Assembly: GCF_050320075.1 (NCBI RefSeq)
Contig: NZ_CP190018.1
Origin: Escherichia coli
GTDB lineage: Bacteria > Pseudomonadota > Gammaproteobacteria > Enterobacterales > Enterobacteriaceae
Strand: one strand, 5' to 3'
Length of the DNA: 64,000 bases
The position numbers and the translations under genes are program-made. Positions 8,884 through 16,763 of this stretch are shown here, in pieces. Position 1 is the stretch's first letter. Every line of letters starts with the position of its first letter. The notes beneath the pieces are model-generated. The model saw nothing but the letters and a program-made list of their open reading frames with translations. It did no database searches and was not told the DNA's origin.

Positions 8884-9639
8884 AATCATCATTCAGGTAT
8901 CAGGAAGAGTTAAGGGTACAAGGGGTACTCGATGACGGTCTATATTTCACGACTAACGCCATTTCAAGGAAGAAGTGTGGTGGGTGGTTTCGAATGAGGG
9001 CTGGTGTTTTGGTACGTGGCACGCCACTGCAATGTATTTATCCATCAGTACTCATTCAAAAGTACCTGGAAAAAATGCCCGCTATGCCAAGCGGGCAAAT
9101 TGCTTACATGTGGAATTAAGTAATTAACGATAAAGCCAGAGTATTATCATTTATCATGCCTCTTCATTTAATCAGGTTAATTACTCAAATCACTGAACTA
9201 TTCTCTGTTCGCTCACTGATGATAAGTGAAGTGTCACAACCACGATTTGTATGTGGACCAATGCTGTAGAGTAAGGATGAAATGTCTCTGCCACGCCTTA
9301 AACATCTACTACTGACTAGAACCGCCGTCGAATGCAGAAGAGTCTTGTGAGCATTACAGGAGTCTGGCTTTGGTCATTAATCAACGCTATTTAGATATAA
9401 ATTTCTAACACTCAAAAAACGATTCTCACGAATAAATTATAACGGGTGGTTTTTATCATACAGTGAAATAACCTTTTGCTTATTAAATTTAACATTCTTG
9501 TGCTAAATTAATTAAAAGTACCATGTATAGCATATGAAGCTGTTAATGCCAGCAATTGTCTCAAATGAGCGATTTTTTATAGTGACAAACAATAATAACA
9601 TTAAAAATAGCCATGTAGACATTAACTGAGGAAAAGACA

Positions 9640-9987
9640 ATGTTAGTTAGTAAAAGCAACGAAATTAACACTAGCACATTTATAAATAGTGGAAATTGCA
9701 ATGAAAGAAAATCCTCTAAATCCATGGAGTTACTAGCTTATAGTATTATAAAATTAATTTGTAAAGAAGCTGCCTCAGGGACGTATAACGGTGCTCTTGA
9801 AATTTTACAAAAAATGATGTCTGAATGTAAATATCATGAAGGCAATGCTTTTGTCATTATGGGAGCCGGAGAACAATTAAAACGTATTAAATATGATGCT
9901 AATGAAAATAAATTAAAAGTATACAACGTACACTTTGATAATAATCAAGAGTTAGTTGCTGATGGTGAGCCTGACGTAGTATTTTAA
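9640..9987 (+). CDS. hypothetical protein, 5' segment of ypjC-like ORF (ends at in-frame TAA)
   Basis: 115-aa ORF in very AT-rich DNA; Ser/Thr/Asn-rich N-terminus MLVSKSNEINTSTFINSGN; same frame as the following ORF. Confidence 0.4.
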   Translation: MLVSKSNEINTSTFINSGNCNERKSSKSMELLAYSIIKLICKEAASGTYNGALEILQKMMSECKYHEGNAFVIMGAGEQLKRIKYDANENKLKVYNVHFDNNQELVADGEPDVVF

Positions 9988-9996
9988 AAAAAAACG

Positions 9997-11094
9997 GTGT
10001 GGGAAGACCTTCTCGTTAAACTAAAGCTGGAGAACAAAGAAAATGCGGTTTCTGAAATTAACCTGTCATCTAATAAAAATAATGTTGATCAGTTTATTGA
10101 ATGCGCTAAGAGAAATGAACAGACCCTATTCGGCAATATAAGAAAAAGTGATTTTCATGTTGCTTCACTTCAGCCAGGTAGAACGCGTAGTGTTATTTCA
10201 GAAACGCCGCCAAATGACTGTATGGAATCACATAATTTATATGAAAACCACACAGATACGGTTTCAACTGTAACTAAAAATTCTCAGCAAGTTAAAGGTC
10301 ACTATGGAGATAAGTTGAAAGAAATGCAGTTGTTCCTCAACCAGATGAGCAATGCACTTCAACAGGATTCATCTTTGTTAGAGTCAAAGGAACACACCAT
10401 AGATATTCAAGAAAAAACGAATAAGTTTGTGCAGCATTTTCAGCGGGTATTATTTGATAAAAATGGAAGGTCATCAGAGTTTCTACTTAATTTTTATGAG
10501 TGTTGCTATAAGTTTTTACCAAGAGCGCAGCCTCAAGATAAAATCGATAGCTATAATTCAGCACTGCAAGCTTTTTCCATCTTTTGTTCATCTACGTTGA
10601 CACATAATAATGTAGGGTTTAATTTCAAATTATTTCCAGAAGTCAAGCTGTCTGGAGGAGAGCTTGAAACGGTATTCAAATACAAAAATGGTAATTTTGT
10701 CTGGGAGATAGCCAGAATTAAAATTACTCTCCCAAAAGAAGAGGGTGGTTTATATAATTTACGTGGATTGGATTTTAAGGGATGCTTCTTTTCTGGACAG
10801 AACTTCAGTAACTATGATATTCAATATGTGAACTGGGGAACGTCATTGTTTGATCTTGATACTCCATGTATTTTTAATGCGCCTGCTTACAACAAGAGTA
10901 ATGAAAAATCATTAGAACGCGTCAGCGAAAACGGTTTAAGTGGAGTCTTGTCTGATCGTAATAAAAAAATAAAACTAATCACGGGTGTGGCACCATTCGA
11001 TGATATTTTATTTATGGATGATGACTTTGATGATAACTCCCCTGATGATGGTCCCGTTGAGAATAGTCCTGTTGTGAATAGTCCCCTTGTATGA
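9997..11094 (+). CDS. hypothetical protein, 3' segment of ypjC-like ORF with pentapeptide-repeat-like stretch and acidic tail
   Basis: 365-aa ORF with GTG start 10 nt after the TAA at 9985-9987, same frame; NLRGLDFKGCFFSGQNFSNYDIQYVNWGTSL resembles pentapeptide repeats; C-terminus DDDFDDNSPDDGPVENSPVVNSPLV. Confidence 0.45.
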   Translation: MWEDLLVKLKLENKENAVSEINLSSNKNNVDQFIECAKRNEQTLFGNIRKSDFHVASLQPGRTRSVISETPPNDCMESHNLYENHTDTVSTVTKNSQQVKGHYGDKLKEMQLFLNQMSNALQQDSSLLESKEHTIDIQEKTNKFVQHFQRVLFDKNGRSSEFLLNFYECCYKFLPRAQPQDKIDSYNSALQAFSIFCSSTLTHNNVGFNFKLFPEVKLSGGELETVFKYKNGNFVWEIARIKITLPKEEGGLYNLRGLDFKGCFFSGQNFSNYDIQYVNWGTSLFDLDTPCIFNAPAYNKSNEKSLERVSENGLSGVLSDRNKKIKLITGVAPFDDILFMDDDFDDNSPDDGPVENSPVVNSPLV

Positions 11095-16603: not shown

Positions 16604-16616
16604 CCATCAACGAAAA

Positions 16617-16634
16617 AGCCCACATCTGTGGGCT
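16617..16634 (+). terminator. hairpin after the autotransporter gene (possible terminator)
   Basis: AGCCCACA tc TGTGGGCT stem-loop 14 nt after the stop; short T-run. Confidence 0.4.
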
Positions 16635-16763
16635 TTCATATCACCAAGAGCCGCGGCTCCTTTGCGTATCCTTTTATGTCTCCTCACCGTCTGGTCGGTG
16701 TCTTGCTGAGACTTCTAACTTCCTGTTTTTGTTGGTGTTGTCCTTGCACCGTCCAATCATGAT

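Follow-up and report, generated by a model that had tools for sequence, protein, structure and literature searches.

Is the low-GC DNA that lies between the tRNA gene ileY and ssrA in an Escherichia coli chromosome an island that entered at the tRNA, or is the tRNA gene itself part of the variable DNA? The question is raised by a 64,000-nucleotide stretch (the window; contig NZ_CP190018.1 of RefSeq assembly GCF_050320075.1), in which an earlier note, made from the letters and their open reading frames, had described positions 8884-16763 as an old, fixed, ileY-anchored island with a mosaic of decayed and intact horizontally acquired genes. In our reading, to which we give a probability of about three in four, this interval makes up the right three quarters of a low-GC accessory block of 10.75 kb, bordered by glaH on one side and by the native ssrA 3' flank on the other (features are listed in Table 1). 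Escherichia has two main alternatives at this site, of which the block is one; it is strain-variable, ordinary and largely known already, and represents no new element or mechanism.

Table 1. Features between glaH and the ssrA attachment repeat, in window coordinates (a dot stands for no strand)
Feature	Position	Strand	Evidence or remarks
Whole presence/absence block	5859-16612	.	10,754 bp; ygaQ, ileY, ypjCB, pinH', ypjA
ygaQ-like alpha-amylase-family gene, intact, 750 aa	5996-8248	-	Outside 8884-16763, within block
ileY, predicted tRNA-Ile2, anticodon CAT	8808-8883	+	ARAGORN, Rfam, RefSeq annotation
Unoccupied attB	8837-8883	+	47 nt recurring as attR once an island occupies ileY
Native ileY 3' flank, non-coding, GC 0.41	8884-9205	.	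Follows attR in MB22; E. albertii homology
AT-rich stretch upstream of ypjCB, GC 0.35, start of second sub-block	9206-9639	.	Allele identity falls to 90-92% at its start
ypjCB, broken by in-frame TAA at 9985-9987	9640-11094	+	Pfam DUF5507 and DUF5508; NCBIfam Ecoli_YpjCB
pinH', serine DNA invertase fragment, 56 codons	11456-11622	+	Pfam Resolvase positions 54-101 of 145
ypjA leader module with conserved 39-aa ORF (11845-11964)	11645-12028	+	Homology to ymgJ-minE upstream region
ypjA/ehaD, intact AIDA-type autotransporter adhesin (predicted), 1524 aa	12029-16603	+	Pfam, RefSeq
Native ssrA 3' flank with hairpin (16613-16637)	16613-16763	.	Not block; ~152 bp; adjoins ssrA in empty alleles and AR_0114
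Distal att repeat of P4-like satellite at ssrA	16764-16778	.	15-mer identical to 28467-28481

Boundaries and frequencies of the block and its empty counterpart

The block was delimited by aligning the window with the empty allele found in E. coli SCU-112, where the order is glaH, 682 bp and ssrA (ssrA lies ~0.7 kb from glaH), which gives exact breakpoints at 5858/5859 and 16612/16613. The same breakpoints recur in Escherichia sp. E1V33, in E. whittamii and in the B2 strain S88, itself a carrier of the empty allele. The block reaches 3 kb further left than the interval originally described, whose end at 16763 is one base before the ssrA att repeat. In E1V33 and E. whittamii, the equivalent of the window up to 5858 is joined to 16613-16782 via ~355 bp, with ssrA adjacent, and the 355-bp sequence is also present in a representative of a third species (L012). 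The empty allele, in which ~333-355 bp of unrelated DNA takes the place of the block, is carried by ~20% of the complete E. coli genomes and also by three further species of Escherichia, and both alternatives are located between glaH and the ssrA flank. We rejected the idea that the 355-bp sequence is a collapsed remnant of the block, because sensitive blastn and tblastx comparisons of the two revealed zero homology. Genomes with the empty allele have neither ileY nor ygaQ, so that a comparison with genomes lacking an insertion at ileY, as the earlier note had proposed, turned up no tRNA gene joined to the flank; since the empty allele replaces the entire block including ileY, the tRNA gene lies inside the block and not at its edge.

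Presence or absence at a fixed site between conserved core genes is the pattern of a hot-spot accessory block, and the atypical composition and narrow taxonomic range of this DNA agree with it. The GC content is 0.424 in the block versus 0.568 from gabT to glaH (0.35-0.45 across most of 8884-16763 versus 0.57 in the gab genes), and AUA codons are ~10-fold enriched, at 11-28 per 1000 in the block genes (28 in ygaQ) versus 0-2.4 in the gab genes. Within 10 kb of glaH, ygaQ, ypjC, ypjA and a tRNA-Ile gene are absent from Salmonella, Citrobacter and at least 25 further enterobacterial loci. Strain AR_0114 matches 94% of a 12-kb query (window 5500-16786) at 99.5% identity.

Frequencies were counted as BLAST coverage in 5426 complete E. 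coli genomes, a set biased to clinical lineages, with no phylogenetic correction applied. The ygaQ end of the block (5859-7100) is carried by 4209 genomes (78%) and the empty allele by 1100 (20%), which together account for 98% of the set. Further to the right, ileY and its upstream region are present in 3100 genomes (57%), the DNA that follows the tRNA gene (8884-9639) in 3113, and ypjA at a coverage of at least 80%, that is near-full, in 2440 (45%); the description of the segment as fixed does not hold at such frequencies. Approximately 43% of complete E. coli genomes have no ileY at this locus.

Could the block instead be ancestral Escherichia core DNA of odd composition, with the 20% empty allele a later deletion or replacement that was spread by recombination? 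In E. albertii, ygaQ, ileY and the tRNA flank are present at 60% amino-acid and ~67% nucleotide identity, a level that vertical descent without constraint might roughly account for (the expected neutral figure being an estimate), so that at least this part could be ancestral and the 333-355-bp allele derived; another Escherichia species (L013), which retains the left edge of the block (5859-6004), counts in the same direction. However, the other enterobacterial glaH loci lack the block genes, both composition and AUA usage deviate strongly, E. albertii has neither ypjCB nor ypjA, and a plain deletion would not yield ~333-355 bp of unrelated DNA. For the block as a whole, we regard an ancestral core origin as improbable.

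The attachment site in ileY is empty

The gene at 8808-8883 reads as a tRNA-Ile2 by its CAT anticodon, its C4-G69 and C5-G68 acceptor pairs and its predicted cloverleaf. It matches the Rfam tRNA family with 73.7 bits, is called Met by ARAGORN, and is annotated by RefSeq as tRNA-Ile in strain YZLc1-3, which has the identical gene; the allele carries A28-T42 and G27-C43 in the anticodon stem. The two acceptor pairs have a role in recognition by TilS. SpLE1-like elements use a single attB common to ileX and ileY (PMC8767318), and an occupied ileY junction was detected in 98 genomes. In strain MB22, an island of ~54 kb occupies the site: its attL (L002:23308-23383) is a hybrid tRNA, an integrase (L088:35620-36936) lies at the opposite end, and the 47-nt attR (L088:37133-37179) is followed by the homologue of window positions 8884-9430. 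A chromosomal inversion between ileX and ileY, considered as an explanation for the MB22 arrangement, was rejected once the attR and the integrase had been found. As the attR of MB22 precedes the 8884-9430 homologue, this sequence is the native flank of ileY and the attB in the window is unoccupied. The site is intact and empty, and the block was not made by site-specific recombination at ileY.

Searches for the machinery of such an event gave the same picture as the earlier note, which had remarked on the lack of an integrase and of an obvious direct repeat of the tRNA end. Between 5859 and 16790, tblastn with five integrases returned only noise (best E = 0.87), and the same queries recovered the integrase of the neighbouring satellite at 27098-28282; Pfam scans of the main ORFs identified no integrase either, pinH' being of the invertase type. 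No direct repeat of the tRNA 3' end was found with up to three mismatches, and the best gapped local alignment scored 12, whereas shuffled sequences averaged 11-13 and reached at most 16-18, so that the suggested hunt for a degraded att repeat yielded nothing above shuffle background. A start within the tRNA gene, an integrase, a distal repeat and an empty site that keeps the tRNA, as expected of a tRNA-anchored island, are all missing. The label ileY-anchored has to be given up: the empty allele drops ileY and ygaQ too, the DNA 3' of the tRNA gene is native flank, and low-GC DNA flanks ileY on both sides.

These results bear directly on a variant of the original proposal, namely an old site-specific island in the 3' end of ileY whose integrase and attR have decayed beyond recognition, which we consider very improbable. 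ileY is a real integration site for SpLE1-like and CP4-like islands, as in MB22 and the 98 genomes (PMC8767318), the foreign composition of the segment would fit, and the content 3' of ~9205 differs between E. coli (ypjCB, pinH' and ypjA) and E. albertii (an L31 paralogue, unknown genes and EspG). An att-bounded island would begin inside the tRNA gene, however, and the first 322-550 bp after it are native flank, lying beyond attR in MB22 and shared with E. albertii; moreover, neither an att repeat above shuffles nor an integrase remnant was detected, and ileY and ygaQ are themselves removed in the empty allele. The flank of the MB22 attR largely refutes this view.

On the other side of the block, ileY and ssrA are oriented 3' end to 3' end, and ssrA is occupied by a P4-like satellite here, by CP4-57 in K-12, and by P2-like or other prophages in S88, IAI39 and 20AR0354. 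The 15-mer of the ssrA end is present in exactly two copies, 16764-16778 and 28467-28481 (chance expectation 0.01), and there are no further ssrA-end repeats in the window: allowing one mismatch, the 15-mer core hits the two known copies, and a 24-mer with three mismatches hits the ssrA copy only. Bounds formed by the ssrA end and a direct repeat hence fit the neighbouring satellite and not the block. Least probable of all is that the segment is a distal relic of older ssrA islands or prophages pushed outward by tandem accretion, for, although ssrA is a very active site, pinH' resembles phage invertases including those of P2-type phages and the 3'-to-3' arrangement would suit it, ~152 bp of native ssrA flank part the block from the ssrA att in block and empty alleles alike, and neither an extra ssrA-end repeat nor an integrase remnant was found in the window.

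Pieces of the block and decay of its genes

The 756 bp that follow the tRNA gene (8884-9639) are AT-rich and non-coding, as had been noted, with a GC content of 0.35-0.41; they contain a 109-aa ORF with no Pfam match and no Rfam family. The E. albertii homology spans 8388-9205, covers the first 322 bp of the flank and is absent from 9206-9639, and the E. coli alleles are 96-97% identical over 8884-9205. Next comes the split ypjC-like gene of the earlier note, ypjCB, which consists of two pieces in the same frame (9640-9987 and 9997-11094, corresponding to NF050179 positions 1-115 and 120-465) and is cut by a single nonsense change, TTA to TAA, relative to AR_0114, whose gene encodes an intact protein of 484 aa. 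In total, 426 homologues of YpjCB were found in 5.8 billion proteins, and every named source among the best 120 listed is E. coli or Shigella; no PDB relatives were found at E <= 1, and the AlphaFold model, with 16 close homologues, has a mean pLDDT of 36.5. The C-terminus gives the impression of a pentapeptide-repeat or effector-like sequence. The 94% identity to K-12 had suggested that the block as a whole is a deeply diverged allele, an idea that was rejected because lhgO and glaH, which flank it, reach no more than 95-96% themselves. Unusually low values were seen solely in ypjCB (88-91% allele identity) and in the 5' part of ypjA (91%).

The recombinase remnant is pinH', which corresponds to residues ~39-94 of ~190 in an alignment to Gin, with an internal frameshift, and has neither the catalytic N-terminus nor the HTH domain of a complete invertase. 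Its nucleotide identity to phage invertase genes (P2-type phages included) and to pinE is 78-86%, and a similar fragment, with both termini gone, is annotated at the same position in IAI39, O157, a K-12-like strain and the window. This shared annotated truncation in four phylogroup-diverse strains supports an old age of the block. The adjoining leader of ypjA is 85-87% identical over 11645-11999 to the region upstream of a paralogous autotransporter at ymgJ-minE, and those 'plasmid' matches to the leader that were inspected are chromosomal fragments with minCDE. An ancestor with an intact invertase and autotransporter on plasmids or phages was rejected, given that only the ~140-bp invertase core matched phage genes. 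The large autotransporter, ypjA, is intact: one open frame contains the Pfam domains AIDA (10 stretches), Pertactin and Autotransporter beta-barrel, from which a type Va protein is predicted, and it is 100% identical to a RefSeq ypjA CDS not flagged as a pseudogene. At the left end of the block, ygaQ has an Alpha-amylase_C and a weak Alpha-amylase Pfam match; it has become a pseudogene in the K-12-like strain, O157 and MB22, whereas AR_0114 and IAI39 retain an intact copy. Among the window, the K-12-like strain, O157, IAI39 and AR_0114, each of the genes ygaQ, ypjCB and ypjA is broken in some cases and whole in others.

Junctions at about 9205, 11456 and 11625-11645, GC steps between the pieces and a step down in allele identity at 9205, where the E. 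albertii homology ends, support a mosaic with discrete junctions in which intact and decayed genes are mixed. The block is a composite of at least four pieces: ygaQ, ileY and the 322-bp flank, with a diverged counterpart in E. albertii; the fast-evolving ypjCB, for which every named homologue comes from E. coli or Shigella; a ~170-bp scrap of a phage-type DNA invertase, truncated at both ends; and the ypjA autotransporter with its leader, a paralogue of the ymgJ-ycgH module, with a left edge that falls where the invertase breaks off at its 3' end. The order in which the four may have come together is suggested by the junctions alone, and neither a target duplication nor transposon ends were found that would explain how the block itself was inserted or replaced. 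After assembly, the genes have decayed independently by lineage, here with one recent nonsense codon in ypjCB, and the block is probably also being worn away from the ssrA end by IS elements and by deletions tied to the islands and prophages that repeatedly arrive there. Of the original reading, the accessory nature, foreign composition, mosaic structure, mixed decay and age stand; the anchoring at ileY and the fixation do not.

ileY as part of the block, and comparison with known systems

ileY lies inside the block, probably as cargo, and is a second and dispensable tRNA-Ile2 gene amid AUA-rich DNA. ileY can be deleted without complementation and ileX cannot (PMC11480407). More tentatively, and with the odds against it, ileY might be no host core DNA that drew in an island but an imported, island-borne tRNA-Ile2 that travels with the AUA-rich ygaQ, ypjCB and ypjA, is kept as an aid to their translation, and belongs to an old polymorphism of block versus 333-355-bp allele across Escherichia species; this would also fit the report that ileY alone does not replace ileX. 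The main value of the analysis is a correction of annotation logic: adjacency to a tRNA gene alone does not make a tRNA-anchored island, and it misleads here because the tRNA gene itself lies within variable DNA. This is relevant to island-prediction tools, to work in which ileY counts as a core tRNA gene, and to the prevalence of ypjA/ehaD in strain surveys.

Like the SpLE1-like and CP4-type islands at ileX and ileY, the block adjoins a tRNA gene, has a foreign composition and includes an adhesin gene and pseudogenes; unlike them, it has no integrase or att duplication, its tRNA flank is native, and the tRNA gene is lost along with it. The true ileY island in MB22, with its hybrid tRNA, integrase and 47-nt attR, is quite different. 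Rare-codon tRNA genes are also carried by phages and islands, as in the case of ileZ-argN-argO on Stx prophages, where ileZ may aid the translation of AUA-rich phage genes. ileY resembles these as a tRNA-Ile2 (AUA) gene in AT-rich, AUA-rich accessory DNA that is dispensable to the host (PMC11480407), and differs in that no recognisable mobile element surrounds it. The ymgJ-ycgH locus has a leader (85-87% identity over ~355 bp, with a short ORF) and an AIDA-type autotransporter paralogous to the ypjA module, but is located next to minE, encodes a shorter autotransporter and has no adjacent invertase fragment. The nearest known counterpart is the ygaQ-ileY-ypjC-pinH-ypjA region of K-12, between CP4-57 and the gab/csiD operon, which has the same genes in the same order and orientation and a similar pinH' fragment, with segments 89-97% identical; the two differ in ygaQ (intact here, a pseudogene in K-12), in the ypjCB lesion, at four positions of the ileY allele, and in the occupant of ssrA, a P4-like satellite here and CP4-57 there.

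Contents and setting of the interval 3' of ileY

The window is E. coli chromosome, with YZLc1-3 as its nearest complete genome (99.8% identity), and opens with gabT-gabD-lhgO-glaH, which end at 5659 on the minus strand. Rfam confirmed ileY as a tRNA gene; its anticodon is CAT, and ARAGORN labels it Met, the RefSeq annotation of the identical gene tRNA-Ile. The earlier note had described an old, fixed, ileY-anchored mosaic of AT-rich non-coding DNA, a split ypjC-like gene, a recombinase remnant and a large autotransporter gene, and all four components are present (see table). The DNA directly after ileY has a GC content of 0.35-0.41 and is non-coding in all tests applied, and ypjCB is interrupted by a single TTA to TAA nonsense substitution relative to AR_0114, a close relative (99.5% identity over 94% of a 12-kb query, window 5500-16786) in which the 484-aa gene is intact. 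In line with the note, a search of the interval found no integrase remnant, and alignments of the tRNA 3' end gave no repeat above the shuffle background.

Features around ileY and segment counts among 5426 complete E. coli genomes
Feature	Coordinates	Strand	Description	Genomes
Block left end	5859-7100			4209 (78%)
ygaQ-like amylase gene	5996-8248	minus		
ileY	8808-8883	plus		
ileY and upstream region, at least 80% covered				3100 (57%)
ileY 3' region	8884-9639			3113 (57%)
ypjCB	9640-9987 and 9997-11094		two ORFs, same frame; jointly cover the 465-position NCBIfam YpjCB model	
pinH' recombinase remnant	11456-11622		about residues 39-94 of a Gin/Pin-type invertase; internal frameshift	
ypjA/ehaD	12029-16603		complete AIDA-type autotransporter, 1524 aa	
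ypjA, at least 80% of gene				2440 (45%)
ssrA	28467-28829	minus	after the P4-like satellite, which follows the interval of the earlier note	
Empty allele				1100 (20%)

The interval had been ended at 16763, one base short of the distal att of the satellite, a 15-mer whose only copies lie at 16764-16778 and 28467-28481 (ssrA 3' end). Just within each satellite end is a 23-nt direct repeat (CGTATACCTAA[T/A]CGTATACCAAT; 16840-16862 and 28333-28355; 96% identical), which may represent arm-type integrase binding sites. Composition steps very sharply at ~17000, from the block to the satellite primase-helicase gene (17091-19424), whose GC content of 0.60-0.63 is well over the E. coli average and far over that of the adjoining block.

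The unit that varies

When glaH with 10-kb flanks was scanned across bacteria, one genome per species, the distance from glaH to ssrA was ~0.7 kb in Escherichia sp. E1V33 and E. whittamii. Both keep the window up to 5858 and 16613-16782, linked by ~355 bp of unrelated DNA, and lack 5859-16612 in full. This empty allele is also found in E. coli, including SCU-112, where glaH is followed by 682 bp and then ssrA, without ileY, and alignment to this strain places the breakpoints at 5858/5859 and 16612/16613. Since 5859-16612 is missing as a whole, the indel unit is ygaQ-ileY-ypjCB-pinH'-ypjA, with ileY inside it; the low-GC DNA on each side of the tRNA gene fits this position. The replacement (333-355 bp; L009 9448-9803 and L010 from other Escherichia species, and comparison locus L087 15099-15431) is 82-90% conserved across Escherichia species, is without annotated genes, shows no detectable similarity to block sequence, and ends at the same hairpin that comes after ypjA in block genomes.

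The empty allele occurs in B2 and in representatives of three other Escherichia species (L009, L010, L012), another species (L013) retains the left edge of the block, and E. albertii has a diverged ygaQ-ileY sub-block. Block and empty allele both seem older than E. coli. In Salmonella, Citrobacter and other genera, no block genes and no tRNA-Ile were found within 10 kb of glaH. The B2 strain S88 combines the empty allele with prophages at ssrA; between its two tandem prophages the ssrA flank and att region occur a second time, at 94% identity (L095 32336-32533, L096 25470-25670), which points to successive integrations, each re-creating the site.

ileY as attachment site and accessory tRNA gene

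In strain MB22, the T-arm and acceptor 3' strand of ileY are replaced, and after the hybrid gene comes a ~54-kb island that carries a tyrosine integrase at the opposite end. The native 47 nt that the island displaced from ileY form attR, after which comes directly the homologue of window 8884 to ~9430. It follows that the attB of the window (8837-8883) is intact, empty and still joined to its native flank, which contradicts an att-mediated origin of the DNA after ileY; with ileY also part of the indel unit, the block is not anchored at this gene. The occupied-ileY junction is present in 98 genomes, and the end of the MB22-type island adjoins ileX in other strains. A study of O121:H19 described one attB common to ileX and ileY for SpLE1-like elements (PMC8767318).

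For a tRNA gene ileY is unusually variable, its alleles in E. coli strains being 1-5 differences apart (8808-8883 compared with loci L005, L090, L091, L092 and the E. albertii locus L011). The anticodon stem forms a compensatory series: G28-C42 with G27.T43 in K-12, G28.T42 in O157, A28-T42 with G27-C43 in the window and the mismatch A28.C42 in AR_0114. Three of the variable positions, 42-44, belong to the 20-nt core of the attB of ileX and ileY in which crossover takes place.

YpjA is known as a cryptic adhesin. For YpjCB, the AlphaFold model was unusable (pLDDT 36.5) and a search for a PDB relative found none. In K-12, ileY can be deleted without complementation and ileX cannot, despite the presence of ileY (PMC11480407), which agrees with ileY as an accessory copy. 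AUA makes up 11-28 of every 1000 codons in the block genes and 0-2.4 in the gab genes, and by codon usage ileY could therefore be a cargo tRNA for its AUA-rich neighbours.

Mosaic structure, age and probable erosion

E. albertii shares only 8388-9205 with the window, plus ygaQ at 60% amino-acid identity, and continues beyond 9205 with other genes. At ~9205, identity between E. coli alleles also steps from 96-97% to 90-92%, and it is 88-91% in ypjCB. YpjCB has only 426 homologues in 5.8 billion proteins; among the best 120, many of them full length, all source-named ones are from E. coli or Shigella. The invertase scrap pinH' matches invertase genes of phages, P2-type phages among them, over only ~140 bp (78-86% identity). 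At 11645 begins 85-87% identity to the leader of a paralogous autotransporter locus, ymgJ-ycgH, and the left boundary of the ypjA module therefore coincides with the 3' truncation of the invertase. In the window, O157, IAI39 and a K-12-like strain alike, pinH' is annotated at the same position as a similar fragment that lacks the N-terminus and the C-terminus, which suggests that the composite predates the divergence of these four lineages.

In E. albertii, the same hot spot holds effector cargo: the DNA 3' of ileY (L011 1-6238) encodes an L31 paralogue, several proteins that matched no Pfam family and a type III effector of the EspG family. The ypjA leader (11645-12028, ~355 bp) contains a conserved 39-aa ORF (11845-11964), and its paralogue (L093 5001-5355) lies upstream of a ycgH-type autotransporter at ymgJ-minE; these cryptic adhesins may have a regulatory leader or a leader peptide in common. 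Two PLSDB records entered as plasmids, NZ_CP010135.1 (L093) and CP088590.1 (L094), contain minCDE, ymgD-J and pdeG and are chromosomal fragments, so plasmid counts for chromosomal queries in PLSDB are inflated.

Block-derived and empty alleles together account for 98% of the 5426 genomes. The block is not fixed, with ileY in 57%, near-full ypjA in 45% and the empty allele in 20%, and the gradient in frequency is consistent with erosion that proceeds from ssrA. Individual lesions include an IS1 deletion in MB22, truncation of ypjA by IS3 in IAI39, IS2 or IS3 breaks inside or after ygaQ in AR89.2B and B-766, and a P2-like remnant extending to 54 bp beyond ileY in 20AR0354. For each of ygaQ, ypjCB and ypjA there are strains with an intact gene and strains with a broken one, a pattern of relaxed, lineage-specific decay. 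Loss of ileY through IS elements in strains W and B was already reported in the E. coli W genome paper (PMC3032704).

The observations behind the earlier note are therefore correct, and its mosaic and the age it proposed are supported, whereas anchoring at ileY and fixation are not. The block is a K-12-type accessory region that was already known; what is usefully corrected is the place of ileY, a tRNA gene that is itself part of what varies.
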